A DNA stretch of 64,000 nucleotides from an uncultured Planctomycetales bacterium (GTDB lineage Bacteria > Omnitrophota > Gorgyraeia > Gygaellales > Profunditerraquicolaceae), in contig CAZJFL010000003.1 in assembly GCA_964545575.1 (NCBI GenBank), positions 55,000 to 118,999 on the forward strand. Reading direction: 5' to 3'. How positions within the stretch are numbered: position 1 is the stretch's first letter; the number at the start of each line of letters is the position of its first letter. Shown here one piece after another: positions 1,884 to 20,379 of this stretch. The translations under genes and the position numbers were made by a program. Under the pieces are notes generated by a model. The model was not told the DNA's origin. It searched no databases and was given only the letters and a program-made list of their open reading frames with translations.

Positions 1884-1887
1884 CTCT

Positions 1888-3279: not shown

Positions 3280-3323
3280 TCTTAAAAACCCGCGCCTTTA
3301 GAGCTTATCTATGTATAGCGAGA

Positions 3324-4457: not shown

Positions 4458-5271
4458 GGACAGGAACCTCCTTGTTGAAATCTGAAGCGATTCTTTCGAT
4501 CAATCCCCCGTCAACCTCCTTTACCTCCTGGCCAAAACCGATCAAAAGGCTCATATCGCAAATATTATTTATCTTCCTCGGCAGGCCCTGGGCGTGGTCA
4601 TAAATGGCCTGCATAGCCTCTGCGGTAAATATCTCGCTCTTAGCACCTGCTACGCTAAGGCGGTGTTTGATATACTCCTCAGTCTCTTTTCTATCAAGGG
4701 CTGCCAAATGATATTTTATGCCTAACCTCTGCTCTAACTGCGGTATTGCCTTGACCTTGCCCAATAGTTCAGGTTGGCCTATCAATACCAGCGTAATCAG
4801 AAATTTATTATTCAGCTGAAAGTTAAGTATCAGCCTCAGCTCTTCAAAGGTTTCCTTGTTCTTGATAATCTGCGCCTCATCAATTAAAATCACGGTCTTT
4901 TTCTGGTCATTGTGATTTTTATAAATGATATCCTGCAGCATATGCAGCAGTTGCGGCTTTGAGCCTTGGATATGTTCGTTTTTCAACTGATAGATTATCT
5001 CCTGTATAAACTGGATAGGGGTAAGCTGCGGGTGGACGATAAGCGCGACCTCATAGATCTTGTTTTTTATAAGTTCCTCTATGATAATCCTGCTTAATAC
5101 GGTTTTACCCGAACCGTATTCTCCGGAGAGCATCGCAGCCCCCTTCTCCTCTTTTATGGCATAGAGCATCCTGGTAAGGGCTTCTTCATGCTTCTTGGAA
5201 TAATACATAAAACGCGGGTCAGGCGTGTTTTCAAAGGGTTTCTCGGCCAGGCCCCAGTATTTTTCATACAT
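4441..5271 (-). CDS. ExeA/GspA-like AAA ATPase (PEP-CTERM locus secretion-ATPase type)
   Basis: 276 aa with Walker A GEYGSGKT and Walker B VILIDEAQ. The architecture is that of the AAA ATPases that accompany Wzc/Wza in exosortase-type EPS loci. Confidence 0.65.
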   Translation of the reverse strand: MYEKYWGLAEKPFENTPDPRFMYYSKKHEEALTRMLYAIKEEKGAAMLSGEYGSGKTVLSRIIIEELIKNKIYEVALIVHPQLTPIQFIQEIIYQLKNEHIQGSKPQLLHMLQDIIYKNHNDQKKTVILIDEAQIIKNKETFEELRLILNFQLNNKFLITLVLIGQPELLGKVKAIPQLEQRLGIKYHLAALDRKETEEYIKHRLSVAGAKSEIFTAEAMQAIYDHAQGLPRKINNICDMSLLIGFGQEVKEVDGGLIERIASDFNKEVPVHAKDV

Positions 5272-7219
5272 TTTTTCCGCCCTCCTCTGTCTTTTTTTCC
5301 GAAGGATCCTTGCCGTAATACTTTTTGCTGTAATAATAGTAATAGGCGCTCATGCCAATCTCGGGGGTAACGTTATTTAAGATGATGCCGGCAAGCGATT
5401 TTTTGCCCCTGACGCTCTCTATCTGTATCTTTGACCTGCGCAGCGCCAAACGTGAGGTAGAACCTGCCCGGTAGACTAACAAGACGCCGTCTACTTTAGG
5501 CAATAGAATAGAAGGTTCGCTTACTGCCAATACAGGAGAGGTGTCCATGAGCACCACATCGTATCTGTTTCTAAAATACTGCAGAGTCTCATCGAGTTTA
5601 GAGGAATTAAACAGGGCTATGGTATTGGGGAAAGTTGAGCCTGCAGTGACTACATTGAGATTATTCAACCAGGGTTTCTCGATTATCCTATCGATAGAGG
5701 TAGAGCCCAACATTATATCTGTAGCGGTTTTTATGCTGGCCTCGATGCTTATTTTGCCCGTCAGAATATCGGTCAGGCCATTCTCCTTCTCTTTCAGGCC
5801 GAAGCTCTTGTGTATATGGGCCCTGCGGGTATCGGCATCGACCACCAGGACCTTATAACCCATCTGCGCCATAATCACACCGAGGCTGGAGACAATGACG
5901 GTTTTGCCCTCCTCCGGCTTGGAGCTGGTGATAAGAATTATATTATTCTTTATCTTTCCGTTTTTACCAAAAATCACCTGCAGGTTTACGCCTAAAAGGC
6001 GAAAGGCTTCAAGAAACAAAGAGGTACGGTCGGACTTTTCCAGATCAAGGATATACGTAGGCCTTAAGTCTAGAGCCATGTTTTCTTTTTTGAAAAGAGT
6101 CCAGTGCTTCTTTTTGCCACTCCTCTTCTCCTCCTCCTCATAATACTCTGTGCAGTAAGGAATAATTCCCACCACGCCTACTTTTACGAAAGTTTCAATA
6201 TCATCCACCCTGCCGATGGAAGTATCCAAATTCTCGGATACCAATGCCGTAGCAACGCCCAGAACTAAACCCAAGACTAGCCCTATTAAGTAATTCTTTT
6301 TCTTATCGGGCAAATACGGGGTTTTAGGCATTATAGCCGGGTTGATGATGACAATATTATCCAGTTTCTCCGCTTCTCTGATCTGGGCGGTCTGGAGCTG
6401 TTGTTTTAAGGCATTGTACAGGGTCTCGTTAATCTTGGTATCCCGCTGCAGGATACCATATTCGAATTCCTCTTTGGGCAATGAGTTAAGTTTCTGCTTT
6501 AATATGGATCTTTCCTCTTCCATGTTGACTAAAAGAGGGTATTTGGGCGTAAATCTGGTTGAGAAATCCGTTATCTTGTCATCCAAATCCCGAATCTGCT
6601 GCATAATGCTCGCTGCTACACCTACCGCACCCTGGGTGGTAAGAACACGCAGCCTCTCTTCCTGTTCCTTTAATTTTTCCGAAACATTGGCTAGCGTAGT
6701 CTCGATAAAAATCCTTACATTACGCGTGCGCTCATTCTTCTGCTCCATGTTTATCTCTTTAAATGCCTGGGCCACGCCGTTGGCGAAATCCGTTGCTTTG
6801 GCGGCGTCAGTAAAATAAGTGTAAAGCCGTATCATGCTGCTTTTTTCTATTTCGACCGCCGAAACCTTGCTGGCCAAATCACTGACTATCCGCTCCGCCT
6901 CTCTTTTGGCAACGCCATCTTTTACCCATCCTAATTCTCTGGCGGCTCTTTCTATGACCGGGCCGGTAACCACCTGTCTTATGTAATCGGAAAGCTCATA
7001 AGGCTGCATGTACGAAGAGCGGCTCGGAAATATCACATCGGAAGGGAGCGAGGTAGACTCTATCTTTAAAAGGACCGTTGCCCGATAAATTGGCACCTGA
7101 AAGTAAGTATAAAAAAAAGCACTGAAAAAAACTACCAGGAAGGCAAGAAGGATTTCCCATTTTCTCTTTAAGAATATTGTCGAGTAATCCCTCAGGTTTA
7201 GTTCGTAAAATTTCTCCAT
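5264..7219 (-). CDS. wzc: Polysaccharide co-polymerase / tyrosine autokinase (Wzc/GumC-like, fused chain-length determinant plus BY-kinase)
   Basis: 651 aa. N-terminal TM, a long coiled-coil periplasmic region, a second TM, then a P-loop ATPase (SSKPEEGKTVIVSSLG, VLMDTSP). The C-terminal Tyr-rich tail SAYYYYYSKKYYGK is typical of BY-kinases. Confidence 0.8.
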   Translation of the reverse strand: MEKFYELNLRDYSTIFLKRKWEILLAFLVVFFSAFFYTYFQVPIYRATVLLKIESTSLPSDVIFPSRSSYMQPYELSDYIRQVVTGPVIERAARELGWVKDGVAKREAERIVSDLASKVSAVEIEKSSMIRLYTYFTDAAKATDFANGVAQAFKEINMEQKNERTRNVRIFIETTLANVSEKLKEQEERLRVLTTQGAVGVAASIMQQIRDLDDKITDFSTRFTPKYPLLVNMEEERSILKQKLNSLPKEEFEYGILQRDTKINETLYNALKQQLQTAQIREAEKLDNIVIINPAIMPKTPYLPDKKKNYLIGLVLGLVLGVATALVSENLDTSIGRVDDIETFVKVGVVGIIPYCTEYYEEEEKRSGKKKHWTLFKKENMALDLRPTYILDLEKSDRTSLFLEAFRLLGVNLQVIFGKNGKIKNNIILITSSKPEEGKTVIVSSLGVIMAQMGYKVLVVDADTRRAHIHKSFGLKEKENGLTDILTGKISIEASIKTATDIMLGSTSIDRIIEKPWLNNLNVVTAGSTFPNTIALFNSSKLDETLQYFRNRYDVVLMDTSPVLAVSEPSILLPKVDGVLLVYRAGSTSRLALRRSKIQIESVRGKKSLAGIILNNVTPEIGMSAYYYYYSKKYYGKDPSEKKTEEGGKNV

Positions 7220-7238
7220 AGTAATATCAAACCTTTAC

Positions 7239-8009
7239 CTATTGCCAACCTTTGTCAACATGCCCGCCAATTTCTCTGACTGCCCTTCTCAGATCAATCG
7301 CTGTCATCGCAGCATTGATAGTAGGCATCATGTTGTCTAAGAACTGGTTAAAATCAGCGATAAAGGCCTTAGGCACGAATATCAGATCATTTGGCTGCAA
7401 TATAATATCTTGCCTAGTCGTGCCTTTTGTAAGCACCTGCAGCATATTTATCCTGGTGACCTGCGGCTTATCGGTTAAGTTCCCGCGCACCAGCAGAACG
7501 CAATCCCTGCGGGACTTAACGGTGAAGTCCCCGGCTAATGCTATTGCATCGATTAAAGTCGCCCTGCCCTTGTAAGAGTATATTCCGGCGTAGCCCACTT
7601 CGCCTAAGACAATTACCTGATTGCCGGCAAACTTTGTCATCATCACCGAAACCTGCGGGTTCTTCACGTACTCGGAGATCTTTTCCCTAAATGTATCCTC
7701 GAGCTGGCCTACGCTTAAACCGGCAACTTTAATCCTGCCCACCAGAGGATAAGATATAAAACCGTCGGGCCCTACCACGATATGCTTGCTAAGGTCGGGG
7801 TTCTGCCAGATAAAAATTTCCATGGTATCTTCCGGCGCAATAAAATATTCAACCATGGGAAACTCTCCGGGCGTAGCTTCTTTTTCCGATGCCAGCGTAC
7901 CGCTCCTTACCCTTAAAAATTCCTGCCCCTGGGCAAAAGATTCTTGAACTCCGTAATATATTAGGAATAAAGAAAATATAACCCAAAGGATAAAAAAATT
8001 CTTTTTCAT
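7239..8009 (-). CDS. wza: Wza/GumB-like periplasmic polysaccharide export protein
   Basis: 256 aa with a signal peptide. The polysaccharide-export (Poly_export plus SLBB) pattern is present: PGDTMEIFIWQNPDLS, DGFISYPLVGRIKVAGLSVGQLE. Confidence 0.7.
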   Translation of the reverse strand: MKKNFFILWVIFSLFLIYYGVQESFAQGQEFLRVRSGTLASEKEATPGEFPMVEYFIAPEDTMEIFIWQNPDLSKHIVVGPDGFISYPLVGRIKVAGLSVGQLEDTFREKISEYVKNPQVSVMMTKFAGNQVIVLGEVGYAGIYSYKGRATLIDAIALAGDFTVKSRRDCVLLVRGNLTDKPQVTRINMLQVLTKGTTRQDIILQPNDLIFVPKAFIADFNQFLDNMMPTINAAMTAIDLRRAVREIGGHVDKGWQ

Positions 8010-8083
8010 AAAAATATAGGGCTCCTTTGCACTAAACTCCTATTCTATATTTTATCTTATACCGGTAAAAAATCAATCCTTTT

Positions 8084-9691
8084 TTAAGCGGGTTTTGGCA
8101 ATACTAATTTTGCTATCCCTTTAAAAATTCTCAAGATATAACTTCTCTGCCCCATTGCCTGCCGCGGGGGAAAAACCACCTTTTTTAAAATAATCAGGTA
8201 ATCCTTTAAGCAACGCGCCTCTGTTATTTCAAAAAAAATGTAGGCTAAAAACTTATCCAGGAAAGCCCTGCGCAGCCCTTCCTTCAAGATAACATTTTTA
8301 TTGGCAAAAGCCCGGATAAAAATGCGCTTAGGCGAAGAGAGGCCTAACCAAGCCAATAGTTCTCCAGGAAACCGGGGAACAAAAAAATCCTGATTCAGCC
8401 TGAGCGCTGCATATAGCGAGCCGCTCAGCCGCCATTTTTTTGCTTTATCCGCTAAACGCTGCCAGTTAATTTCCGGGGCATATTTTTGGAGCAATCGGTT
8501 GATATCAGCTACGGCTCTTAAGGTCCGGAAGGAATTGCTGTTGACCAGATGCGCCGAAAGGTAAAGCAGGAGCTCTTCCGGCTTAAAATCGTAATAACTT
8601 GCCCCCTCCCGCTCCACCGGCTCTGTGCCCTCCCATAATCCCTCGATGCGCTCGCGGCTGCGCACCATCATTGTTATATCCCAGTGTAGATCCACTTTTT
8701 TTTCTTTGGATTTAGAAAACTCATACTGCCATTGCCACTTTTCCACAAGTTCGGCCCTGGAGAACCGATAGCCAACCCCCTCTAATGCATTTTTTGTAAT
8801 TTCTCTATCCTCTTCTTTTATCAAAAAATCAAAATCGCAGCTTATGCCCCTTCCTGCAATATTTCCATAAAGCCTCTTAGCCAAAATTGTTCCCTTTAAG
8901 GGTAAAACCAGAATACCCTTTTTTGTAAACACCCCTAGAAGTTCCTCCAGCTGCTTATGCTGGTAATTGACTTCTGAGATTATGAAAAGGTAACTGAATT
9001 TTAATCTATCAAAGACAAATTGCGGGATATCTCGGCGGGGGGCAATTTCTCTTAAGGCATCATACACCAAAATAGTAACTCCTTTTTTCATCGCCAATTC
9101 TAAAAATCTCTGCCAGTAAAGGCCTTCCTTTATTAAACTTGCGGCTTCCTTTTTTAATTTTTCATCTAAATTTTTCTGGCAACAGATTAAGAGAAGCTCT
9201 TCGGTGTTGTAGAGCAAGGGGTTTGCCTTTTTTAATCTATTTTTTAGCTTAAATAGAAACAGCCTCCATTCGATGGCTAAACTTATGTACTTTGATAAAA
9301 AGCTAAGCGCCTTTGGATACCTCAATGAGAGTTGCGCAATAAACCTGTTAAAACGCCTCCATAAAGGCAGATTTAAATCAAAGCTGATTTTTCCCCTCCG
9401 GATTTCGGTTACTCTGCCGACAATTGATTCCGAATTTACTGGATTTTCCAGTCCCCCTTTATGGGCATCTCCTTTTGTAAAATAGGCTGTTTTTCCATCC
9501 TGCTCAATAATCTTTACCACCCGATGGGTGAGAAAAAGCTTTTCTTTATTTATCGGCACAACTTTTATGCAGTCGCCATTTTTTATAAAAGGGCACATGC
9601 TTAAACCTTTGGCGTTGAAATATAGAGGCTTGGCCTCCTGCGTTAAGCTTGAGCCTAAAGCCTTTGCTTTTTGTTCTTCTTTTACGATCAT
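8084..9691 (-). CDS. Fusion protein: N-terminal S24/S26-type (LexA/signal-peptidase-like) serine peptidase domain plus C-terminal uncharacterised nucleotidyltransferase-family domain
   Basis: The N-terminal ~130 aa carry KGLSMCPFIKNGDCIKV (the GxSMxP nucleophile motif) followed by downstream Lys residues. The C-terminal ~400 aa look like the 'nucleotidyltransferase family protein' (NTP_transf_5-like) found with PqqD/HprK-like genes. The likely start is the internal Met at 9691, which avoids overlap with the ABC gene. Confidence 0.5.
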   Translation of the reverse strand: MIVKEEQKAKALGSSLTQEAKPLYFNAKGLSMCPFIKNGDCIKVVPINKEKLFLTHRVVKIIEQDGKTAYFTKGDAHKGGLENPVNSESIVGRVTEIRRGKISFDLNLPLWRRFNRFIAQLSLRYPKALSFLSKYISLAIEWRLFLFKLKNRLKKANPLLYNTEELLLICCQKNLDEKLKKEAASLIKEGLYWQRFLELAMKKGVTILVYDALREIAPRRDIPQFVFDRLKFSYLFIISEVNYQHKQLEELLGVFTKKGILVLPLKGTILAKRLYGNIAGRGISCDFDFLIKEEDREITKNALEGVGYRFSRAELVEKWQWQYEFSKSKEKKVDLHWDITMMVRSRERIEGLWEGTEPVEREGASYYDFKPEELLLYLSAHLVNSNSFRTLRAVADINRLLQKYAPEINWQRLADKAKKWRLSGSLYAALRLNQDFFVPRFPGELLAWLGLSSPKRIFIRAFANKNVILKEGLRRAFLDKFLAYIFFEITEARCLKDYLIILKKVVFPPRQAMGQRSYILRIFKGIAKLVLPKPA

Positions 9692-9695
9692 TTTT

Positions 9696-11441
9696 TTAAA
9701 ATATAATTCCTTCTTCCGAAGCTGCCTCAATCTGGCTGGCAAATAATTCCCTATACCCCGCATTCCTTAAGAGTTCCTCGTGGCTGCCGATATAAATATC
9801 GGCGGGGCCTTCTAAAAAATAGGCCAGCTCCATCTTTTTAACCGTAGATAGCCTATGCGAAACAACGATTATGGTAGAATCTCTGAATTCATTTTTGATA
9901 TTATCGATGATTTTTTCCTCGGTTTCAGAATCTAACGAAGACATCGCTTCATCTAAAATCAGGATACTCGGCCTTTTTATTACTGTTCTGGCAATGGCAA
10001 CCCTTTGCTTCTGGCCCTCGGAAAGTTTACAGGCCATCTCTCCAATTAGCGAATCGTAGCCTTGGGGCAGCTTAAAAATAAATTTATCGATTTGCGCGAT
10101 CTTCGCTGCCTTAACCATTTCTTCATAACTGGCATCATCTTTTCCGTAGAGGATATTATTGGCAAGCGTATCATTCCAGAGGAGCGCCTCCTGAAGGCAA
10201 ATACCAATTTGCTCCTTCAAGGATTTTAATTTAACATCTTTTATATTCTGGCCGTCGATTAAAATCGAGCCTTTTTCCAGATTATAAAGCCTTAAGATCA
10301 AAGAAAGCAAAGTTGTCTTTCCGCATCCTGATTTTCCTACCAGGGCAATTTTTGAGCCGGGTTTGATTGTAAAATTTACCCCTTTTAAGACAAATCCATC
10401 TTTTTGGTATGTAAAATGAACGTCATGAAATTCTATTTTTCCCTTTAGAATCTTTGCCCCGGCGGCACCCTCTTTATCCCTTATCTCTGTTTTGATATCG
10501 AGAATTTCTGCCAGGCGCTGGTAGGATACTGAATTTACAAAAATATTTTCATAAAATCCTGCCATTGACTTAAACGCCCCCAAGGCTTGAGTTAAATAAA
10601 TCATTAACGCAGTCAGGCTTCCTAAGGTCAGATCCCCCCTGATAACTTGATAACCGCCGTATAAAAGAATTATCCCGCTTATCAGCTTGTTAAGAATAGA
10701 GCTGGAAAAACTGCTCATGCTGCGTATGCGGGCGTTTTTGAACTCAAAATCCGTCCTTCTTAAAAGAGATTCCTCAAATCTTTTTATCTCATACTCTTCT
10801 TTGCCCAAAGCCTTTACCAGATGCATATGGCTGAAAACTTCCTGAAGATTTCTATAAATATCCTGGGACTTATCAATGACCCTATAGGCTACCTGTTTTA
10901 GCCATTTTCCAAAAAAATAGGGATGGATAAAACTTAGGGGGGCCAAAATAAAGGTAAAAAAAGCAAGTTTCCAGTTAAGATAAAAAACGATGCATGAAAT
11001 AACCGCCAGGCGCAAAATTACTAAAGGTACCTGGGGGAGGCTGTTAGAGATAAAGCCGCTTACGGATGAAACATCGTTGCTTATACGATAAATATGCTCG
11101 CCTGTAGATTTATCCTTAAAGAAACTTAAAGAGAGGCTCTGCAGGTGCCTGAATAAATCTTTGGTTATATCAAAGCGTACCTGGGAATTTACTTTCGAGG
11201 AAAGGTAACTGATTAAGGAATTGATTAAACCATTTAGGATGAATATGCTTGCGCCAATAACAGCTAAAATCAAAAATAATTTTAGATCCTTATTCGCATA
11301 TGCCCTATCAATGACCAGCTTTGTAAGATAGGGGTTGATTAAACTTAAAGGCAAGCTAACCAGCCCTAAAAGAATTACCAGAGTCTCAATTTTCCAGTAT
11401 CTATAGAGATATTTATTAAAGCGTTTCCAATTTACATTCAT
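9696..11441 (-). CDS. ABC exporter, fused permease/ATPase (MsbA/LagD-like, no C39 peptidase domain)
   Basis: 581 aa. Six TM helices, then Walker A GKSGCGKTT, signature LSEGQKQRVAIAR and Walker B ILILDEA. Confidence 0.85.
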   Translation of the reverse strand: MNVNWKRFNKYLYRYWKIETLVILLGLVSLPLSLINPYLTKLVIDRAYANKDLKLFLILAVIGASIFILNGLINSLISYLSSKVNSQVRFDITKDLFRHLQSLSLSFFKDKSTGEHIYRISNDVSSVSGFISNSLPQVPLVILRLAVISCIVFYLNWKLAFFTFILAPLSFIHPYFFGKWLKQVAYRVIDKSQDIYRNLQEVFSHMHLVKALGKEEYEIKRFEESLLRRTDFEFKNARIRSMSSFSSSILNKLISGIILLYGGYQVIRGDLTLGSLTALMIYLTQALGAFKSMAGFYENIFVNSVSYQRLAEILDIKTEIRDKEGAAGAKILKGKIEFHDVHFTYQKDGFVLKGVNFTIKPGSKIALVGKSGCGKTTLLSLILRLYNLEKGSILIDGQNIKDVKLKSLKEQIGICLQEALLWNDTLANNILYGKDDASYEEMVKAAKIAQIDKFIFKLPQGYDSLIGEMACKLSEGQKQRVAIARTVIKRPSILILDEAMSSLDSETEEKIIDNIKNEFRDSTIIVVSHRLSTVKKMELAYFLEGPADIYIGSHEELLRNAGYRELFASQIEAASEEGIIF

Positions 11442-11500
11442 GGTTAAATTGTCAAATCGCTATATTGTTATACTGCTAGGTAATTTGACAGTTTAGCGGT

Positions 11501-12424
11501 TTATTTTGTCTTGCGCACAAACCCGATCACTCTTTTATTATTTACAAACCCCAAACGATAACAAGGCACGCTGCTAAGCAAATCCTGGCAAAAGGAAACG
11601 ATATTCTCTAAACAATTTTTGTCCCAGAAGGTGGGGAATAAACAGGGATACAGTAGGTTAAGGGCTGACTTTTTAGAAATTATTTTTATTTTATTCTCCG
11701 GGCTATGATAGATAAAAAATATCTTCTCCAGAGGCGCGGATTCTATCTTTGAGCTTAAATAATCGCTGAATGCGCCATGCCAGGGAGAGCTGTAGATAAA
11801 GAATCTTTTTTTAATTTTACGGATGATTATACGATCGTCATTTAAAACCATGGCTTTTGAATGATTATACCAGAGCTTGGCCAGAGTAGTTTTGCCGGCG
11901 TGAGATTTACCGGCAAAAAGTAAACCCTTGCCTTGCAAATCTTTTATCCCCACAGAATGGGTAAAAATTCCTTGCCTTCTTAAGGCAAGATGATTTATCA
12001 GCAGGACCTGTAAAAAGTCATAGATAATATCGGTGAAATTCCAGGCTCTTGCCTTGTTTTTTTTAGGCAAAAGATAAGCATTTACCTTATCAAAGGCCGG
12101 ATTCACCCGCATAAGTTGTTTCTTGGCTTCTAAAGGGCACTTATAGATATAAAAATCATTCTTTTTAAGCAGGCGCCAATTCTCATTTTTGCTTATATAG
12201 TGAGTAGTGATAAAGATATCTTGCGCCTGCCTGATTTCGGGCAATTTGTCTACGATGTTAACCTGAATAGTAATATGCGGTTTTTGCCTTCCCTTATAAA
12301 AAAAATTTTGAAAGCGCTCAAACCTTTCCAGCCTCTTCTTTTCTTTAGTCCGCTGTTCAAAGGGAAAAGCGCTTTGCATCTGAATGACTATATCGGCAAT
12401 CTTTAATTTTACCCTGTACTCCAT
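11501..12424 (-). CDS. HprK-related P-loop kinase (ScmC / HprK-related-kinase type)
   Basis: 307 aa. GKGLLFAGKSHAGKTTLA and LNDDRIII resemble the HPr kinase C-terminal P-loop domain (G-x-S-G-x-GKS ... ADDR). It sits in a PqqD/radical SAM context. Confidence 0.55.
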   Translation of the reverse strand: MEYRVKLKIADIVIQMQSAFPFEQRTKEKKRLERFERFQNFFYKGRQKPHITIQVNIVDKLPEIRQAQDIFITTHYISKNENWRLLKKNDFYIYKCPLEAKKQLMRVNPAFDKVNAYLLPKKNKARAWNFTDIIYDFLQVLLINHLALRRQGIFTHSVGIKDLQGKGLLFAGKSHAGKTTLAKLWYNHSKAMVLNDDRIIIRKIKKRFFIYSSPWHGAFSDYLSSKIESAPLEKIFFIYHSPENKIKIISKKSALNLLYPCLFPTFWDKNCLENIVSFCQDLLSSVPCYRLGFVNNKRVIGFVRKTK

Positions 12425-12425
12425 A

Positions 12426-13484
12426 TTAACAGTTTAAACCTTGCTTTATTTTTTTGGCAAAAATCCGGCTCTCGGGCTCGCAGGAGGTGAAGGTTTTATT
12501 GTAAAGCCATGCCCTCCCCGGGCACCATTTGCAGAAAGGCGCTAAATTGCATCTGTCGCATTTATAATTTTTATCTTGCTTAATTGAGGAAACCAGTCCT
12601 TTTAGCCTCTGCCAGGCATCTTTTAAAGAGGTCTTTAATATTTTGTATTTAGGAAAATCAATCATCAAGCACATTTTCAGTTCTCCAAAAGGATTAATTG
12701 CTGCCTGGCTTACTCCTACTGCGCATTTAAATAAATTATTGCTATCGGGTATTTGGTTTGTAGCCACTAAATCACACTCTTTAAAATTATCTTTTCTTAT
12801 GGCCTGCAACCTGTAGCCTGTAGCCTGTAGCTTATTTTTTAAACTTCCCCTATACCTAAATGGCTCTTTTGAACCATCTAGGCGTGGCGAAAGCCTGGTA
12901 TCCAGCCGATGTAGGGCGCCTAAGGATTCGGCAAAATCCTGGATATCCTCTATTTGGGCTTCGTTTTCTTTTAAAACACAGGTCTTAAAACCTAAATTGA
13001 CTTTATTTTTATGTAAAAGCCCGATTGCTTTAAAAACTTTTTTATATGAACCGGGAGAACAGGTTATCTTCTCAAAAGCGGCTTCAGTCATTGCCGGAAG
13101 GGTAATATCTACCTTGTTTGGTTTAAGCTGGGCTAATTCCCGGGCAATTATTTCATCGATTAAAGAGCCATTGCTATAAATGATGATTTCAACCCCTTTT
13201 TTCTTAGCATAGCAAAGGATCTGTATTATATCCTTTCTCATAAACGGTTCGCCGCCTGTAAAGCCCAAATAGAAGCAACCTATATCAGCCAGTTGATCAA
13301 GAATAGAAAATACCTCTTTAGTCTTAAGTTCTCTTTTTTCTCTAAAACTTTCCGGGACATAACAGTGCCTGCATTTAAAATTACATCTATAGGTTAACTC
13401 GAACATCACCCTTAAGAGAGAACCTTTTTCCTTTGCGCTCTTATGTATCTGTTGCCAGAACTTATTGTAGGCCCTAGTCTGCAT
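12426..13484 (-). CDS. Radical SAM/SPASM-domain peptide-modifying enzyme
   Basis: 352 aa. CX3CX2C (YRCNFKCRHCY) near the N-terminus; C-terminal SPASM Cys cluster (CDRCNLAPFCKWCPGRAW). Confidence 0.8.
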   Translation of the reverse strand: MQTRAYNKFWQQIHKSAKEKGSLLRVMFELTYRCNFKCRHCYVPESFREKRELKTKEVFSILDQLADIGCFYLGFTGGEPFMRKDIIQILCYAKKKGVEIIIYSNGSLIDEIIARELAQLKPNKVDITLPAMTEAAFEKITCSPGSYKKVFKAIGLLHKNKVNLGFKTCVLKENEAQIEDIQDFAESLGALHRLDTRLSPRLDGSKEPFRYRGSLKNKLQATGYRLQAIRKDNFKECDLVATNQIPDSNNLFKCAVGVSQAAINPFGELKMCLMIDFPKYKILKTSLKDAWQRLKGLVSSIKQDKNYKCDRCNLAPFCKWCPGRAWLYNKTFTSCEPESRIFAKKIKQGLNC

Positions 13485-13485
13485 C

Positions 13486-14586
13486 TTAACCGCCTAAACG
13501 CTTTCTCTCTGCTAAGGTGGCTTTAGCCAAATCGCAATAATAAGTTACCGGGGATTCCTCATCCCCGGTTTCTAAGAAAGCCCTGGCTGGGCAGTTATAG
13601 CAGAGCGGCCTTAAAGAACAGAGCCGGCATTTAGATTCGGTTTTAAATTTCTCCTTTAAGATTCCGGGAAAGACGCGGTAAAAGCCTTCTTTAAAGGGAG
13701 TTTCTTTTAAATCCACGCTGAATTTTTCAGAAAACATGCAAAACTTCAATTTTCCATAGGGATTGATAAAGAAATACTTCTTCCAGATATTGCAACGGTA
13801 AAGAAAATCTTTATTTCTGCTTAAATCCGGAAAATCGCTCTTTAAACGCCGCTGGTATTCTTCCCAGATTTGGGGGTCTTGTCTTCTTGCCTCTTTTAGC
13901 TCGGAAAAATTAAGTCTAAAATTTGTGGGGGCTATGTCTCCATTCAGCCGGGGGTAAATCATCGGGTCATATTTGAAATGGTATCTATTTTTGGAAGGCC
14001 CCCCCCAAAGTTGTTCGGTCCATTGTTTTATGCTTCCCAGCTCGTCTTTATTCTGCTTAAGGCAGTTTGTCTTCACTATCAAGGGTATTTTACTTTCTGC
14101 CAAAAATTTAATATTCTTTATTGCCTTTGAAAAAGAACCCCCTACCCGGCTTATCTTTTCATAGGTATCTTTGGTTATCCCGTTTAAAGTGACCTCGATG
14201 GACAGGGGCGGAGATTTTATCAAATAATCAAAAATCTCTTTGCTGAATAGCTGCGCATTAGTAAAAATGGTTACAAGAAAACCTTTTTCTTTGGCAAAGG
14301 AATAAAGCTCTAGAAAATCATCCCTGATTAAGGGATCCCCTCCGGTAAAGGTAACCCATAGACAACCCTCTTTTTTAATCTCGTTTAAAATTTTCTTCCA
14401 ATCTTGAGTGGTTAATTCCTGGTTTGAGGTTTTGCGGTATTTTTGCGGTATTGCGCTATTTTTACAGTAGCAATGGATACAGTTAAGGCTGCAATTGTAG
14501 GTAAGCTCGATTGTGCCGCTTAAGGGGAATTGCCCTTTTTTAATCCTAAGCCGCTGATAAAAAGGGCCTAATCTTCGCTCTTGCAT
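13486..14586 (-). CDS. Radical SAM/SPASM-domain peptide-modifying enzyme (second paralog)
   Basis: 366 aa. CX3CX2C (YNCSLNCIHCY); C-terminal SPASM (CRLCSLRPLCYNCPARAF). Confidence 0.8.
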   Translation of the reverse strand: MQERRLGPFYQRLRIKKGQFPLSGTIELTYNCSLNCIHCYCKNSAIPQKYRKTSNQELTTQDWKKILNEIKKEGCLWVTFTGGDPLIRDDFLELYSFAKEKGFLVTIFTNAQLFSKEIFDYLIKSPPLSIEVTLNGITKDTYEKISRVGGSFSKAIKNIKFLAESKIPLIVKTNCLKQNKDELGSIKQWTEQLWGGPSKNRYHFKYDPMIYPRLNGDIAPTNFRLNFSELKEARRQDPQIWEEYQRRLKSDFPDLSRNKDFLYRCNIWKKYFFINPYGKLKFCMFSEKFSVDLKETPFKEGFYRVFPGILKEKFKTESKCRLCSLRPLCYNCPARAFLETGDEESPVTYYCDLAKATLAERKRLGG

Positions 14587-14589
14587 AAA

Positions 14590-14850
14590 TTAAGATTGCC
14601 CTTCGGCCGAGTAAGGAGTCTGTCCTGCTGGATAGATACCAGGAGGAAACTCGCAAACCCCCTCACCCAGCATCTCTTTTGTAGCGACCTCAGTCCAGCA
14701 AATATTATCTGGGGGTGGAGGGGTATTAGCTAGATGTGCTGTTGTCCATGCCACACCAAACTCAAAACAGTTACAAGACAGCACTGCCTGCTCGGGGTTT
14801 AATTTTATCCGGCTAATCACCGGCCTAAACTTTGGTTTTCTCGTCTTCAT
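14590..14850 (-). CDS. Small Cys/Trp/Pro-containing protein; candidate precursor peptide of the radical SAM cassette
   Basis: 86 aa: MKTRKPKFRPVISRIKLNPEQAVLSCNCFEFGVAWTTAHLANTPPPPDNICWTEVATKEMLGEGVCEFPPGIYPAGQTPYSAEGQS. Its start overlaps the PqqD stop (ATGA) and is preceded by GGAGGTAAA. It has four Cys and lies immediately before the two rSAM/SPASM genes. Confidence 0.4.
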   Translation of the reverse strand: MKTRKPKFRPVISRIKLNPEQAVLSCNCFEFGVAWTTAHLANTPPPPDNICWTEVATKEMLGEGVCEFPPGIYPAGQTPYSAEGQS

Positions 14851-15137
14851 TTTACCTCCTCTATTGCCTTTATCTTCCTTAAATCTTCCAGCAGCACCTG
14901 CAATTTTTTGTCTGTTTCTTCTTCTGTGGTATCAAACTTTTTTAAAATCGCTTTTCTAATATCTTTTAGGGTTCTTTTTCCATCAATTAAATCCCAGATC
15001 TTTAAGGCAGCCTTATTTAGGGTATAAATATAATTTGCTTCCTCGGATGTCCTATAAATGGGTATCAGCATCGCTTGATCATCTATCTGGCGGCTGACTA
15101 TATCCGGGCTCTTCTTTAAAACTGCATCCTTTTTCAT
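14847..15137 (-). CDS. PqqD-family RiPP recognition element (RRE) / peptide chaperone
   Basis: 96 aa. Fits the PqqD family pattern (DQAMLIP...YTLNKAALKIWDLIDGKRTLKDI). SD AAGGAGG lies before the ATG. It is the first gene of the operon. Confidence 0.75.
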   Translation of the reverse strand: MKKDAVLKKSPDIVSRQIDDQAMLIPIYRTSEEANYIYTLNKAALKIWDLIDGKRTLKDIRKAILKKFDTTEEETDKKLQVLLEDLRKIKAIEEVK

Positions 15138-15358
15138 ACTTTGCCTCCTTGTAAATTCAATCGCAACAGTGTGCCCTGGCTATTGCTAGATGAGCGTCTA
15201 ACTATGCCTACAGGGGCAAGGCTATTATTAGGGAAAGCCTACTCTCATATTATCACAAGAGGAAATCAGAGACAACAGGTTTTCTTAAGACGGGGAATTT
15301 GTCTAGGTTTTATGTGGGTTTTGCGTTGGTTTGGGAATTGTCTGGGTTTTGGGTTTTG

Positions 15359-18300
15359 TTAACGCAGGTACCAGTGATCCTCATCGCCCACTAAAAGCTT
15401 ATATCCGGGAAATATTATTTTTGAATAGTCAGAACCGAGATCCATTCTGCTGTTAGCATCAAGGAAGCTAAAACCGACTCCGCTATAAACGTCGATCCTA
15501 GTGTTGTCAAAGATATCTGCGTCTAAGAAGGATATCAGCCCGCCGGCATGAAGATAGAGCCGGTCAATGGTAGTAATACCTACCGCCTCTAAGCTAATGC
15601 TACCAGCAGCATAAAGGGAAATCCAATCATGCGGACCAAAGGAAAAACCCCCTGTCAGAGTAATACTCCCTCCAGTAGAAGTAATAGCCAGTCCTTTGTT
15701 ACCTATAAAGTGGCTAAGGAAAGATGTATTGGCAGTAAGGCTATCTGCACTTTGGAGGTAGATGTAGGAAGAGGTAGCTGTGTTATTTAAAGTAAGGCTT
15801 CCTCCTCCGCTTTTATCATAATTCGCATAAAGATAGATCTTGTCGGCGGCTATACTTTGGTTTAAAGTAACGTCTCCGTAAGCAAGAATATAGATTGCTG
15901 TCAGCCCGGAGAGCTGCGAGTCAACAACAATGGTGCCAGCGGCAGCAGTAGAAGTAATGCCAAGCCCTCCGCTGTAATTGGATAAACGGGGAAGGAGTGC
16001 ACTTAAGGTAAATCCGGTCGGATTCGCACCTTGGAGGTAGATGTAGGGAGCGGTAACCATGATGGTCGGCGGTGTTATGAAAGTAAGGCTTCCAGAGCCC
16101 TTTTTATCATTATCCGCATAGAGATAGATCGCACCGTTTATTGTATCGTTTGTGCTAATAGTAGTCCTGTTTACAGTAAGAGTTCCGGCAGCAAAAAGGT
16201 AGACTCCATCATTTCGGGCAATGGGCGCAGATACCGTAATATCTCCGTTGGTAGAGCAAACACTTAAAACGCCGGTGTTGTTGATTAAAAAGCCAAGGAA
16301 AGCTGCATCGATGAACATAATTGCTGCCCCATCAGGCGCACTTTGGAGGTAGATCTTGGCAGCTTCTACATATTTATTATTTAAATTAAGGGCTCCCGAG
16401 CCATCTTTATCATTATCCGCAAGAAGATAGGCGCAGGGGGCTGTTATCGCTGTTGCCGACAGAGGATTTAAAGTAAGAATTCCAGCAGCATAAAGGTAGA
16501 TTCCCGTATTTCGGGAAATGGCCGTAGTTACCGTAATATCTCCCGTGGCAGCCACTTCTGCTTTAAGAGCGTTGATGCTTAAAACATCTGCGGCACCACC
16601 GGAATAGGCTAATTTGTTCAGGAAAGTCAAATCAATAGTAAAATTCTGCGCGCCTTGGAAGTAGATGTTGGCAGCATTGAAGGTGCCCAATGTATAAGAA
16701 ATCTGTCCCGATATAGCGCCAACACTATCCCCATACGCCGCATAGACGTAAATCTTGCCGCTCCCAGAGGTAACTGATAGGGCTACCGGACCACCTACCC
16801 CTACAGTAATATTTTCCGCACCATAAAGGTAGATTCCCTGAGTGCGGCTAATGTCAGTTGTTACCGTAATATTTCCGGCAGTAGAGGTGATGCTTAAGAG
16901 CTGGGTGTTACTGGTTAAAAAGCCGAGGAAACTTCCATCGATAGTAAAACTACCCGTACCTTGGAAGCCCGCACCTTGGAGGTAGGCGTAGGCAGCGTCA
17001 ATCTTTGTACCTACGCCCCCTATATAAAGTTGTCCTGCTTTATCTTTATCCTGATCCGCATAAAGGTAGACGTGGCCGCCGACTGCGTTGTCGCTGATTA
17101 TATCTGCATTTACAGTAATATCTCCAGTAGCATAAAGGTAGATATTATTTCGGCCACTAATGCGCGCACCTACAGCTACCGTAATATTTCCGTTGGTAGA
17201 GTAGAGACTTAAAACGCCGGTGTTGTTGATTAAAAAGCCAAGGAAACTTCCATCGATATTAAAAAGCTGCGCCTTTTTGAGATAGATGTTGGGAGAGTTG
17301 ATTAGTATGTTATTACTAAGGGTTCCTGTTTTATTTTGATCATAATCCGCATAAAGGTAGACCGCGCCGGTTGTTGCGGTAGAGGCGTTGGCCTGGGCCA
17401 CTGTAACATTATTATCAGCATAAACATAAATTTTACCTCCCGTTGCCGTAATAGTTCCACAGGTAATATTAAGTGAAGCATGAAGATTGACATCTTGGCC
17501 TCCGGTAATCACAGAAGACGCGCCGCCACCAATACAATAAATACTACCGCTTGCGGAAATATAAACTGAACCGGCGGCATTTAAATTATACGTTCCAGGC
17601 ACCCCCAGAATAACATTATGCCCAAAGATTTTTATATCGCCGGAAGTAGCAACGGTAATCGAGGTTCCGTTAGCCTGGGTAAAATCTCCGTCCCCGTTAT
17701 AATCTGAATCAGCCACAAAGATGAAATCAGTACCCGTGACAGTAATACTAGCATTCACATTTATATTGCGGGCGGCTTCTAAGGGACCAACGAGACCTAT
17801 CGGATTGCTAATAATGACGTCATAAAAGGGATGGCCACCAGGAGTGATGGTCGGGGTACTCCCGCCGTTAAAAGTGACAAGTGAGTTTCCAGGGTCAAAA
17901 GTAGCAGCTTCGCTTAAGGTAAAATTACCCCCCACGGATATGTTTGAGCTTTGGGCATTAAAAATAGCGCCGCTGTTTAAAATAAAACTACCACCCACGG
18001 CTAAAGTAAAAGATCCACAATTGACTTCTCCTGAATCTTGGCTATAAGGGCCGTTAATATTAAGGCCCCCCGCCAGGGTGATTGACCCTGAAAAACCACT
18101 TGTAATAATCAGGGAGTTAATCGTTAACCCTGGCATATTCATAATAGTATCGTCTGAGGTTGTATTAAAGATAATATCTTGGCCGTCAGGAGGTATCTGA
18201 GGATTCCAGTTAAGCGGATCTGACCAAAAAATGCCGTCGCCAGGCGGAAACCCCCCTGCCCCCACCCACTCCGGGTCTAAATGCCAGCCCACGATGCTGC

Positions 18301-19963
18301 CGTACTTTCCACCATGGACCACTTCAATAATCTCAGGGTTGAGGTTATGGCTATCCCGGACCAAGACCTCGTCAATATTATGGATATTGGAAGGTATGCT
18401 GATATACCAGGGTTTCCCGAGTTCGGAAGCATAAAGCTTGATTGTATCTGCGGGAGTGCCCTGGATAGTAGTTAAACCCTCAAAAGTATAGGTTTTTCCG
18501 GATTCAAAATAGATTTCCTTGCCCGGGATAGTGCAATTAAAGTTATAAAAGGTGATATTGCCGTATAAATAGGTAGGCTCCTGCCCTAAAAGAGTGACTT
18601 TATTCGCCTCTAAGGTAAGATTAGTATCTTTATTATAGATTATCGCGCCGAAGCCATCTGGCGGGCCGCGCAGCATAATACTGGTTCCGATTCCTAAACT
18701 ATCTAAGATATTAATATCTCCTTGAGTTCTGTTTATATAGATAAGCGCTGCATCTATCACTAAAGGCGCATCTATTGTTCCGAATTGCTTGGCAAATATT
18801 TTAACCTGATTGGCCTGAATAATTACCCCGGGAGCGGTGTTTATCGGAGGATCCCCTTCGTAAGTCACCGGGTCCTCGGGAAGGATGACTTCCACTTTCT
18901 CTGCATTAATGGTGATGAGCTTATCCGCCATGATCAAACCACCCTGTAAAAGGTTGACTGCCTGGATACTGATGAGATCATCAAAACCTTGGGAAGCTTG
19001 AGTGATTATATTGCCTTTATTAATGAAATCTGTACCTTGGGCGTTGACTTCTATCTTACCTGCTTCTAATCTGCCGCTATTAATTATGGGCGCACCCGCG
19101 GCTACCAGTTCAATTACGCCATTACGGTTAACCATATTATTTGCCTGAATTAAGCCCGTATTATTAATCGCATAATCAAAGACGCCATTTAAGACACTAG
19201 CCGTTAAAATAACTTTGCCGCCGTTGGCAGAGATTGTTCCTGAATTTTTAAGCGCAGAATCAAATCCGGAAATGGCTTCTTTTACCGGCCCGTCAACGAC
19301 TACCGAGATTGACCCTAAATTATCCAAAGCTAAGGTCATCTTCTCACCCGAAGCCAAAACCACCGTTCCTAAATCCGCCAGAATTAACCCTTGATTATCT
19401 ATTGCCCCGGATAAAAGGCAGATATATCCGCCCGGACTTCTGATTTGGCCCTGATTGACAATATAACCGTTTCCGGCACCCTTCTTGTAAAAATCATACT
19501 TACCATTTAAGAAATCATCATTAGAAATATCTAAGGTTGAAGCAAGTAATCCGGCAACATCTACCCTTGAATTTGGCCCGAATAAGATTCCGTTAGGATT
19601 AATAATAAAGATGCGTCCGGTAGCAGTTAAAATACCAAAGAGGCTGGAAGGATCAATACCCGTTACCCGGTTTAAGGCAATGCTTGAGGAAGAAGGCTGA
19701 ATAAAATGCACTGCTTCAGCTTGAGCAATAGAGAAACTGTTATAATTGACGATGAGTTTGTCTGAAGTGGTGCTGATAGTCAAGGTTTCTGCGCTTGTGC
19801 GGTCAAAAGTAGCCGAACCGCTGACTACGCTTTCGCCTTCAGGCAGACACCAAATAAATGAGGAACTGCCTAATACTATCAGGCTCGCCAAAATCAAAAT
19901 CAGAGAACCTTTAAAGAGGATTGTTTTTTTCATCTTCTTTTCCCTAATGGTAATGCCTATCAT
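15359..19963 (-). CDS. Large secreted exoprotein with filamentous-haemagglutinin-type TPS (two-partner secretion) N-terminal domain and beta-helical repeats
   Basis: 1534 aa with a signal peptide. The N-terminal domain has the haemagglutination-activity/TPS motifs (FIINPNGILFG, ALNRV). The body consists of about 7 repeats of ~95 aa (IDGSFLGFLxxNTxxLS..STxGNITV...GIYLYAAG) rich in G/N/T/S. Confidence 0.75.
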   Translation of the reverse strand: MIGITIREKKMKKTILFKGSLILILASLIVLGSSSFIWCLPEGESVVSGSATFDRTSAETLTISTTSDKLIVNYNSFSIAQAEAVHFIQPSSSSIALNRVTGIDPSSLFGILTATGRIFIINPNGILFGPNSRVDVAGLLASTLDISNDDFLNGKYDFYKKGAGNGYIVNQGQIRSPGGYICLLSGAIDNQGLILADLGTVVLASGEKMTLALDNLGSISVVVDGPVKEAISGFDSALKNSGTISANGGKVILTASVLNGVFDYAINNTGLIQANNMVNRNGVIELVAAGAPIINSGRLEAGKIEVNAQGTDFINKGNIITQASQGFDDLISIQAVNLLQGGLIMADKLITINAEKVEVILPEDPVTYEGDPPINTAPGVIIQANQVKIFAKQFGTIDAPLVIDAALIYINRTQGDINILDSLGIGTSIMLRGPPDGFGAIIYNKDTNLTLEANKVTLLGQEPTYLYGNITFYNFNCTIPGKEIYFESGKTYTFEGLTTIQGTPADTIKLYASELGKPWYISIPSNIHNIDEVLVRDSHNLNPEIIEVVHGGKYGSIVGWHLDPEWVGAGGFPPGDGIFWSDPLNWNPQIPPDGQDIIFNTTSDDTIMNMPGLTINSLIITSGFSGSITLAGGLNINGPYSQDSGEVNCGSFTLAVGGSFILNSGAIFNAQSSNISVGGNFTLSEAATFDPGNSLVTFNGGSTPTITPGGHPFYDVIISNPIGLVGPLEAARNINVNASITVTGTDFIFVADSDYNGDGDFTQANGTSITVATSGDIKIFGHNVILGVPGTYNLNAAGSVYISASGSIYCIGGGASSVITGGQDVNLHASLNITCGTITATGGKIYVYADNNVTVAQANASTATTGAVYLYADYDQNKTGTLSNNILINSPNIYLKKAQLFNIDGSFLGFLINNTGVLSLYSTNGNITVAVGARISGRNNIYLYATGDITVNADIISDNAVGGHVYLYADQDKDKAGQLYIGGVGTKIDAAYAYLQGAGFQGTGSFTIDGSFLGFLTSNTQLLSITSTAGNITVTTDISRTQGIYLYGAENITVGVGGPVALSVTSGSGKIYVYAAYGDSVGAISGQISYTLGTFNAANIYFQGAQNFTIDLTFLNKLAYSGGAADVLSINALKAEVAATGDITVTTAISRNTGIYLYAAGILTLNPLSATAITAPCAYLLADNDKDGSGALNLNNKYVEAAKIYLQSAPDGAAIMFIDAAFLGFLINNTGVLSVCSTNGDITVSAPIARNDGVYLFAAGTLTVNRTTISTNDTINGAIYLYADNDKKGSGSLTFITPPTIMVTAPYIYLQGANPTGFTLSALLPRLSNYSGGLGITSTAAAGTIVVDSQLSGLTAIYILAYGDVTLNQSIAADKIYLYANYDKSGGGSLTLNNTATSSYIYLQSADSLTANTSFLSHFIGNKGLAITSTGGSITLTGGFSFGPHDWISLYAAGSISLEAVGITTIDRLYLHAGGLISFLDADIFDNTRIDVYSGVGFSFLDANSRMDLGSDYSKIIFPGYKLLVGDEDHWYLR

Positions 19964-20379
19964 TTATTATCCTTCAATAAAAAAGCCCACTCTGTATCCT
20001 ACTAGAATGGGCTTATAGTTTTTTATTGCTTTGTTTCGGCAACTGACTGCCATACCCCATCTTAGGGGGTTTAGGCTCTAGAGTTTTGCGCCCCATCCTT
20101 TCGGATAGTTTACCTTTATCGTCTTACATATAAAGTATAACAGCTCTTGTGCAACTTGTCAACTTACACATCACTGTATTTTAGAGGCACATGCCCCGCC
20201 CTCTGCGGGGATGTCCCTAAACCTATCGGTACCTTGCCCTAAATGATGGGCAAGTATCCCACCGCCTGTGGGAATGGTTTATGCACCCTGCAATTCAAAA
20301 AATTAACCAAGAGATAAGCTGCCTAATCTATTGACTTGGAGCTCTTAATATGCTATTTTATGGGCTAAAGGAGAAACTT

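Follow-up and report, generated by a model that had tools for sequence, protein, structure and literature searches.

A putative hybrid RiPP operon in an Omnitrophota-type bacterium pairs a phosphopeptide-type tailoring module with radical SAM enzymes

What does an operon make that places a protein related to HPr kinase beside radical S-adenosylmethionine (SAM) enzymes and a small cysteine-containing peptide? We examined this question for seven open reading frames (ORFs) at positions 8084-15137 of a 64,000-nucleotide stretch of contig CAZJFL010000003.1 (assembly GCA_964545575.1), hereafter the window. A sequence-only reading of the window had described them as seven co-directional, tightly packed genes, and a check of the ORF coordinates upheld this layout: all seven lie on the minus strand, with successive intergenic gaps of -4, 3, 1, 1 and 59 nt from the PqqD gene through the ABC exporter gene. 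In order, they encode a discrete 96-aa PqqD-family RRE, the peptide-recognition element (14847-15137); an 86-aa precursor peptide (14590-14850); two radical SAM/SPASM-like maturases, rSAM1 (366 aa, 13486-14586) and rSAM2 (352 aa, 12426-13484); a 307-aa P-loop kinase-like protein with an HprK/PEPCK fold, of the Pfam 'ScmC' family (11501-12424); a 581-aa MsbA-type ABC exporter, a half-transporter without peptidase domain (9696-11441); and a fusion of a peptidase to a nucleotidyltransferase (8084-9763 as an ORF). Our results point to a chromosomal hybrid operon for a ribosomally synthesized peptide that is modified post-translationally (RiPP) in an Omnitrophota-type bacterium, in which a tailoring module of the type found in linear polyphosphorylated peptide (LPP) and paeninodin clusters is combined with a radical SAM module and the modified peptide is secreted; we put the probability of this reading at about 0.7. 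The first module would comprise the PqqD RRE, the HprK-like Ser kinase, the NTP_transf_5 nucleotidyltransferase, the SipW-type leader peptidase and the MsbA-like exporter, and the second the radical SAM/SPASM-like maturases.

The start of the PqqD gene is preceded by a strong Shine-Dalgarno sequence (AAGGAGG). The ATG of the peptide gene overlaps the PqqD stop codon (ATGA), and GAGGAGG lies upstream of the peptide start, in agreement with the earlier description of the peptide as translationally coupled. For the last gene, the alignment of orthologues places the start at the ATG at 9691 (MIVKEE...) and not at 9763, which corrects the gene to 8084-9691. Consequently, it begins 4 nt past the stop of the ABC exporter gene and does not overlap that gene by 68 nt, as had been thought.

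The precursor family and the recurrence of the operon

The 86-aa peptide is made up of a leader (MKTRKPKFRPVISRIKLNPEQAVL), a junction (SCNC), a variable core with Cys51 and Cys66, and a C-terminal Ser86. No match to it was found in Pfam or NCBIfam, and a database clustered at 90% identity held 25 homologues. In the 50% library, the family grew to 834 representatives at E<=1e-3, of which 633 reached E<=1e-10. Family alignments revealed a near-invariant N-terminal part, M.RKPKF[RK]P.ITR[VI]KLNPEQAVL, followed by x-C-x-C or, in a second subtype, by C-C in its place. The sequence past this motif is hypervariable and contains one or two more Cys; the cores have 3-4 Cys. With 834 family members among the representatives, and with the same genes found together in the 35 non-redundant loci described below, the 86-aa ORF is a genuine RiPP precursor gene and not a chance ORF.

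The other fixed point of the peptide is its last residue, which is Ser in 151 of 155 representatives (Thr in 3) and in 107 of 124 peptides from the genome loci (Thr in 11); for comparison, Ser makes up 11.8% of core residues. The residue that follows EQAVL at the junction is Ser in about 50% of the members and Ala in 13-20%. The junction Ser was considered as an acceptor like that of LPPs and was rejected as a conserved site, because only about half of the members have it.

Precursor genes can be numerous. Omnitrophota metagenome-assembled genome (MAG) STF1_137 encodes 35 distinct ones on 12 contigs, and another MAG has 11. Most of those in STF1_137 are remote from any cassette and resemble a prochlorosin-like library. 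Prochlorosins are a combinatorial lanthipeptide library made by a single LanM enzyme; like them, the present family has many scattered or tandem precursor genes with one leader and hypervariable cores, but in place of the single LanM stand radical SAM enzymes, a kinase and a nucleotidyltransferase. A genome that encodes dozens of hypervariable precursors would offer enzymes of relaxed substrate specificity a natural combinatorial library. The window holds one precursor gene, and neither further precursor genes nor a third radical SAM gene was found elsewhere in its 64 kb. The near-invariant C-terminal Ser, the multi-copy hypervariable precursors of other genomes and the reduced state of the window copy (see below) had all escaped the sequence-only reading.

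Several observations were made on individual precursor loci. Precursors of the second subtype, with the leader ...KLNPEQAVLSCC[DN], occur both in tandem and scattered in loci L053-L077 (e.g. L054, L069, L070 and L075). In the marine Omnitrophota MAG JAHJHM01 (L018, L023 and L029), the longest ORFs (240-279 aa) span the PqqD gene into precursor sequence; these could be RRE-precursor fusions, or else stops or starts missed by mechanical ORF calling. The precursor gene of locus L003 (10001-11658) is an orphan, as the 10 kb upstream of it contain no cassette; at a distance of 850 nt are a gene that weakly matches a PEP-CTERM sorting domain and a PilZ-domain gene.

A scan for the leader pattern, with one genome per species, yielded 72 loci, mostly in Candidatus Omnitrophota MAGs; the other labels were Elusimicrobia, Planctomycetales, Verrucomicrobiota, NPL-UPA2, WOR-3, Chloroflexota and others. 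The ORFs of these loci were then searched with the window proteins and with profiles derived from them, which gave 35 non-redundant kinase-bearing loci, mostly of Omnitrophota. Homologues of rSAM1 and of rSAM2 were each present in 32 of the 35 loci, a third radical SAM clade (rSAM3) in 33, PqqD in 30, the ABC exporter in 22, the nucleotidyltransferase in 20 and the S26 peptidase in 18, the last three counts being lowered by contig ends. Precomputed Pfam labels, obtained by independent look-ups, gave the same picture (PqqD, Radical_SAM, ScmC, ABC, NTP_transf_5 and glycosyltransferases). Gene order is conserved in these related genomes, and the operon is real and widely conserved in uncultured Omnitrophota. 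In one Omnitrophota cassette (L006/L001; 2476-3471, 5065-5439 and 10338-10703), the genes are interspersed with small ORFs of the GIY-YIG, DUF5674, 23S_rRNA_IVP and RVT_1-fragment types, which suggests that selfish elements were inserted into the operon.

The two enzyme modules and their relatives

The PqqD assignment was sustained (Pfam PqqD, 43.5 bits against a cut-off of 23.4), and weak matches in the PDB led to the lasso RRE TbiB1 and to LppB (9x8z). For the kinase, the alignment of orthologues showed an invariant GxSxxGK[ST] motif together with D196, R198 and H156, and the structure model has a PEPCK/HprK-like fold. The window protein itself had no Pfam match at E<=0.01; Pfam PF27840 'ScmC' is recorded on a protein (P0027) that is 99% identical to it. 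Among the 36 kinase orthologues, 16 matched Hpr_kinase_C and only 8 matched TIGR00679 (HPr kinase/phosphorylase), weakly. Compared with the PDB, the family profile gave P-loop-level matches only, with HprK as a weak match at E about 0.09, and in an hhalign comparison it aligned with an HprK-like kinase from a lasso cluster of Bacillus at a probability of 93.5% (E 2.3e-7). Judged from its sequence, the kinase is no genuine HprK, an outcome that the earlier reading had named as refuting its view: the window protein has no Pfam match to Hpr_kinase_N plus Hpr_kinase_C, and its context is a RiPP operon.

The fusion of a peptidase to a nucleotidyltransferase was likewise borne out. Its N-terminal domain (9377-9634, minus strand) is signal-peptidase-like, of the SipW/Sec11 type (S26B), with NCBIfam matches to sigpep_I_arch (E 2.3e-7) and SipW (E 6e-7). 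The profile of its orthologues matches human SEC11C/A at E 1e-8 with the SM, HRV and KGD boxes aligned, and Ser31, His56 and Asp75 are invariant in the orthologue alignment; we therefore assign the domain to the endoplasmic reticulum/archaeal/SipW type of peptidase. The nucleotidyltransferase domain (8381-9115, minus strand) scores 166 bits against Pfam NTP_transf_5 and is modelled with a predicted local distance difference test (pLDDT) value above 90. It is 27% identical (E 7e-16) to a PF14907 protein that adjoins a Bacillus lasso cluster, and its structural neighbours include 4xje, as published for PsmN (PMC6993621). Fusions of peptidase and nucleotidyltransferase occur in 5 cassette loci and, among protein clusters, in at least 30; elsewhere the two are separate genes. 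The exporter matches Pfam ABC_membrane (148.5 bits) and ABC_tran (117.4 bits) and, as had been claimed, has no C39 domain; its NCBIfam matches are of the MsbA/TAP/HlyB type, all under cut-off.

The exporter and the peptidase-nucleotidyltransferase fusion had been regarded as unusual additions to the cassette. This view had to be given up: with the RRE and the kinase, they make up the conserved core of LPP clusters (RRE, HprK-like kinase, NTP transferase, SipW-type peptidase and MsbA-like exporter; Popov et al., Nat Commun 2026, PMC13381572) and the tailoring set of paeninodin and pseudomycoidin (PMC8498205, PMC6993621). In the LPP system, the peptidase LppS is of the SipW type with a Ser-His-Asp triad and cleaves off the leader only when the RRE LppB is present (PMC13381572). 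In paeninodin-type clusters, the precursor's C-terminal Ser is phosphorylated, sometimes more than once, by HprK homologues that are largely indifferent to the remaining sequence; many such clusters contain an NTP-transferase gene, in some cases as a fusion with the B2 leader peptidase (PMC8498205). The addition of one or two hexoses to the phosphate of pseudomycoidin requires PsmN (PMC6993621).

The non-radical-SAM half of the window operon thus corresponds to the LPP enzyme set, and the two systems share a conserved precursor N-terminus, a variable C-terminal part and a setting in polysaccharide loci. The differences are equally clear. The window system has, in addition, two to three enzymes of the radical SAM/SPASM kind, of which the LPP paper mentions none, and with each radical SAM clade present in 32-33 of the 35 related loci a linear product, as in LPPs, is not what its gene set indicates. 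The leaders are unrelated (KFxPxI..KLNPEQAVL in the window family, YxxPxVLxHQxIxFETxxS in LPPs). The cores of the window family bear Cys, and their conserved hydroxyl residue is the C-terminal Ser, whereas in LPPs the phosphorylated residue is Ser3 of the core, just past the cleavage site (PMC13381572). The window peptidase is fused to the nucleotidyltransferase. Finally, LPP clusters are described as restricted to Bacillota (PMC13381572), and the window system is found in Omnitrophota, Elusimicrobia and others.

The likeness to the paeninodin/pseudomycoidin lasso systems (PMC8498205, PMC6993621) lies in the HprK-like kinase and the PF14907 nucleotidyltransferase, both homologous to those of the window, in a precursor that ends in Ser (the kinase target), in the PqqD-type RRE and ABC exporter, in the fusion of nucleotidyltransferase and leader peptidase in some lasso clusters, and in nearby polysaccharide genes. 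In contrast to these clusters, the seven window genes include neither a macrolactam synthetase (the Asn-synthase-like C protein) nor a transglutaminase-type B2 peptidase; if a ring is formed at all, radical SAM chemistry would have to form it, and the leader peptidase is a serine peptidase. One lasso cluster served for direct comparison, that of Bacillus sp. AFS043905 (NUSS01000021.1), which is of the paeninodin type with Asn_synthase, HprK-like, PqqD and Transglut_core3 genes. This cluster adjoins the PF14907 gene in a polysaccharide locus with glycosyltransferases, a MurJ-like flippase and a pyruvyl transferase, a neighbourhood like that in the window.

For the second module, the claim of two radical SAM/SPASM enzymes was confirmed in part. 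Both proteins match Pfam Radical_SAM (rSAM1, 75.9 bits; rSAM2, 94.8 bits) and have SPASM-like Cys, but the Pfam SPASM model matched neither. rSAM1 contains CX3CX2C at C32/36/39 and seven conserved C-terminal Cys (265, 283, 320, 323, 329, 332 and 351); rSAM2 contains CX3CX2C at C34/38/41 and a conserved C-terminal Cys cluster. All three radical SAM clades combine CX3CX2C with seven conserved C-terminal Cys in SPASM-like spacing (CX2CX5CX2C). The possibility that the enzymes belong to characterised cofactor-maturation families was not borne out: the window enzymes score 79-126 bits against families with NCBIfam cut-offs of 265-650, and they reach no NCBIfam equivalog cut-off. Their best matches there are NirJ2/AhbD, MftC and StsB, all far under cut-off (for rSAM2, NirJ2 with 126.6 bits against 500 and MftC with 111 against 265). 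The nearest solved structure is SkfB for rSAM1 (E 2.8e-15) and PqqE for rSAM2; similarity to solved enzymes is generic (<=60 bits). Like the sactipeptide and ranthipeptide maturases (e.g. SkfB, AlbA and StsB), the window enzymes have CX3CX2C and seven Cys of the auxiliary-cluster kind, and they go with an RRE of the PqqD type and with precursors that contain Cys. They differ in that their RRE is discrete and not fused, in the three radical SAM clades per cluster among relatives, and in the merely generic similarity. The formation of thioether bridges would be their most likely reaction.

As far as sequence comparison can tell, the system is a radical-SAM-containing relative of the LPP and paeninodin tailoring systems and distant kin of the SynChlorMet (SCM) cassette. 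On this reading, the phospho-tailoring module of LPPs and paeninodin reaches beyond Bacillota into Omnitrophota, Elusimicrobia and other uncultured lineages, where it is coupled to radical SAM chemistry. No description of the combination of HprK-like kinase, radical SAM and PqqD was found in the searchable literature.

Proposed pathway and competing readings

In the pathway that we propose, PqqD would bind the conserved leader (KFxPxI.R.KLNPEQAVL) and present the peptide to the enzymes. The radical SAM enzymes would cross-link or otherwise modify the core through its conserved Cys (the CxC at the junction and one or two core Cys), and the kinase would phosphorylate the near-invariant C-terminal Ser, possibly several times; we propose this Ser as the acceptor because of its conservation and the lasso precedent. 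The nucleotidyltransferase domain could then add a sugar or a nucleotide-derived group to the phosphate. The peptidase domain would cleave off the leader in an RRE-dependent manner, and the ABC protein would export the product, whose most likely place of action is the cell surface or the matrix, in concert with the Wza/Wzc polysaccharide machinery encoded next door.

Several points weigh against this reading. All steps of the pathway are inferred. The kinase assignment comes from weak sequence scores and from a model with a mean pLDDT of 64.6 that is poor around the P-loop, and the radical SAM matches are of a generic kind (NirJ2/AhbD/MftC far under cut-off; SkfB or PqqE among structures). The LPP precedent of Ser3 calls for caution over the C-terminal Ser as acceptor, and LppN was inactive in the heterologous system that has been published (PMC13381572). 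Cores that are hypervariable and occur in many copies would also suit an antagonistic, bacteriocin-like peptide. Last, rSAM3 is missing from the window copy, and 13 aa between the catalytic Ser and His of its peptidase domain are deleted, in a part that is modelled with low confidence, so that this copy may not be fully functional.

The alternative that survives best, which we regard as possible but on the unlikely side, is that the product is a bacteriocin-like antagonistic peptide, or one for interaction with a host or prey, and that the adjacency to exopolysaccharide (EPS) genes has no functional meaning. Hypervariable cores behind a conserved leader, up to 35 distinct precursor genes per genome and their tandem arrays would all suit such a role, as would the dedicated ABC exporter of the cassette. 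The GC content of the cassette (0.37-0.41 in 9000-14500) is lower than that of the flanking EPS and two-partner secretion (TPS) genes (0.43-0.47), a possible sign of horizontal acquisition, and the patchy distribution of LPP and paeninodin clusters was read by the authors of the LPP paper as typical of conflict systems (PMC13381572). Against this stands the linkage to polysaccharide genes. In 14 of the 35 loci, homologues of Wza, Wzc, the ATPase or HD-GYP are found no more than 10 kb from the cassette; these loci include ones labelled Elusimicrobia, Planctomycetales and 'Clostridia' and come from several phyla, and the EPS genes are upstream of the cassette in some and downstream in others, with differing gene orders. 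The earlier suggestion that the peptide is linked to polysaccharide or surface biology thus gains support from synteny. We infer that the linkage is far above expectation for a gene set with one or few copies per genome. LPP and paeninodin clusters, too, lie inside capsule loci, and an EPS gene is induced along with them (PMC13381572). Moreover, none of the seven genes is evidently an immunity gene. Since the Wza/Wzc/HD-GYP linkage appears here independently of the Bacillota LPP clusters, a role of phosphopeptides in capsule or biofilm biology becomes directly testable.

A more specific idea would carry the polysaccharide linkage further. The peptides would not be antibiotics but a combinatorial library of radical-SAM-cross-linked surface or matrix peptides, in which the C-terminal phospho-Ser anchors a sugar or glycan that is built by the nucleotidyltransferase with neighbouring glycosyltransferases and exported with Wza/Wzc. 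We offer this as a speculation to which we give low odds. If true, Omnitrophota and other uncultured phyla would have a peptide-linked exopolysaccharide or glycopeptide coat, and the up to 35 variants per genome would serve interaction with hosts, prey or particles.

A second alternative, which concerns this genome only and which we consider unlikely, is that the cassette is a decaying remnant without a mature product. In a contig with 93% identical DNA (L078), the kinase gene is separated from the ABC gene by a gene for a 357-aa rSAM3 (L078 2277-3350). At this site, the window has 19 nt in place of 1057 nt of L078, and the whole of rSAM3 is gone; the scar occupies the gap between the two genes (11442-11500). 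Comparison with L078 also revealed a 39-nt in-frame deletion in the window peptidase domain at about 9536-9541. The 13 missing residues ('IKIGDIIVVNKEK', the GDI-V box region) are present in L078 and in other orthologues and lie between the catalytic Ser and His; by its sequence, the deletion apparently arose between direct repeats coding for NKEK. The peptidase domain of the window is modelled at a pLDDT of 45-68, while the nucleotidyltransferase domain exceeds 90, and the single precursor gene in the 64-kb window also agrees with decay. However, all seven ORFs are intact, and each of the two deletions is in frame or clean. The window copy has kept its catalytic Ser, His and Asp, the Walker A and DxD motifs and every iron-sulfur Cys, and the translational coupling and Shine-Dalgarno sequences are undamaged. 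In our main reading, this copy, which has lost the third radical SAM gene and part of the peptidase domain, may yield a simpler product or be partly defective.

Third, the operon might be a member of the SynChlorMet (ScmC/D/E/F) or HPr-rel-A/B cassettes as defined in NCBIfam, the match that the sequence-only reading had proposed; we find this quite improbable. What stands is the shared core architecture, namely PqqD, paired radical SAM/SPASM enzymes and an HprK-related protein in one operon, along with the broad Pfam family PF27840 'ScmC' that covers the kinase. In addition, the best NCBIfam match of PqqD is ScmD, and among the kinase orthologues 27 of 36 match ScmC and 31 of 36 match HprK_rel_B. 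What does not stand is membership in the families themselves, since the window proteins fall short of every equivalog cut-off: ScmC (TIGR04249) 19.2 bits against 125, ScmD (TIGR04248) 34.1 against 100, HprK_rel_B (TIGR04355) 20.5 against 200, and ScmE (74.4 and 78.6) and ScmF (69.1 and 73.4) against 400 (TIGR04250/51). HprK_rel_A (TIGR04352) had no match in the window kinase, PqqD_rel_X was not among the PqqD matches, and even the best kinase orthologue reached an E-value of only about 4e-9. The radical SAM enzymes score better against NirJ2/AhbD than against ScmE/F. Furthermore, the third radical SAM clade, the peptidase, the nucleotidyltransferase, the exporter and the identified precursor family are outside those definitions. 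SynChlorMet was not found mentioned in the searchable literature; to our knowledge, no substrate has so far been assigned to these TIGRFAM relatives (SCM and HPr-rel), nor a precursor to the SCM cassette. The present family of at least 834 clusters, with its KLNPEQAVL leader and terminal Ser, is a large recognisable precursor family for a cassette of the HprK-related/radical SAM type.

The remaining alternative, maturation of a peptide-derived redox cofactor of the pyrroloquinoline quinone (PQQ) or mycofactocin type with no secreted peptide, follows the familiar PqqD plus radical SAM/SPASM logic and finds MftC (87-111 bits), which acts at the precursor C-terminus, and PqqE (79-82 bits) among the better NCBIfam matches, but it is hardly credible and was rejected on these scores, far under the cut-offs of 265 and 381, and on the hypervariable cores without a fixed cofactor-forming motif, to which the many paralogous precursors per genome and the presence of an exporter, a leader peptidase and a kinase in the cassette may be added.

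Genomic neighbourhood of the operon

Downstream of the operon and co-directional with it lies a polysaccharide block (711-8009, minus strand), in which Pfam and NCBIfam matches for each gene verified the Wza, Wzc and PEP-CTERM-type ATPase genes named earlier. It encodes Wza (7239-8009), a Wzc-like kinase (5264-7219), a pepcterm-ATPase-like protein (4441-5271), an HD-GYP protein (3324-4457), Wzy_C (1888-3279) and a DegT aminotransferase (711-1883). Upstream, also on the minus strand, is the gene for a 1534-aa TPS/FHA-like protein (15359-19963). Its product resembles a giant secreted adhesin, with an N-terminal TPS domain and a long repetitive beta-helix-like sequence. As a component of the system this gene was rejected, as no homologue lies near any related cassette.

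A c-di-GMP-I riboswitch (RF01051) was found directly upstream of the TPS/FHA-like gene (20035-20124, minus strand; 73.4 bits, E 1.7e-12), and the best sigma-70-like match of the region (11/12) precedes it (20162-20134, minus strand). The strand block to which the riboswitch belongs has the HD-GYP gene at its far end. Between the TPS/FHA-like gene and the PqqD gene there is no terminator-like site; consequently, c-di-GMP control could reach the cassette. As a conserved regulator of the cassette the riboswitch was rejected, having been found in none of 23 related loci. A scan of 3000-20500 for promoters and terminators gave counts that do not differ from those of shuffled sequences (34 against 35.9 and 25 against 20.5) and defined no operon boundaries. 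The remainder of the 64-kb window is ordinary chromosome, with genes for the Rnf complex, PurN, SecA and others.

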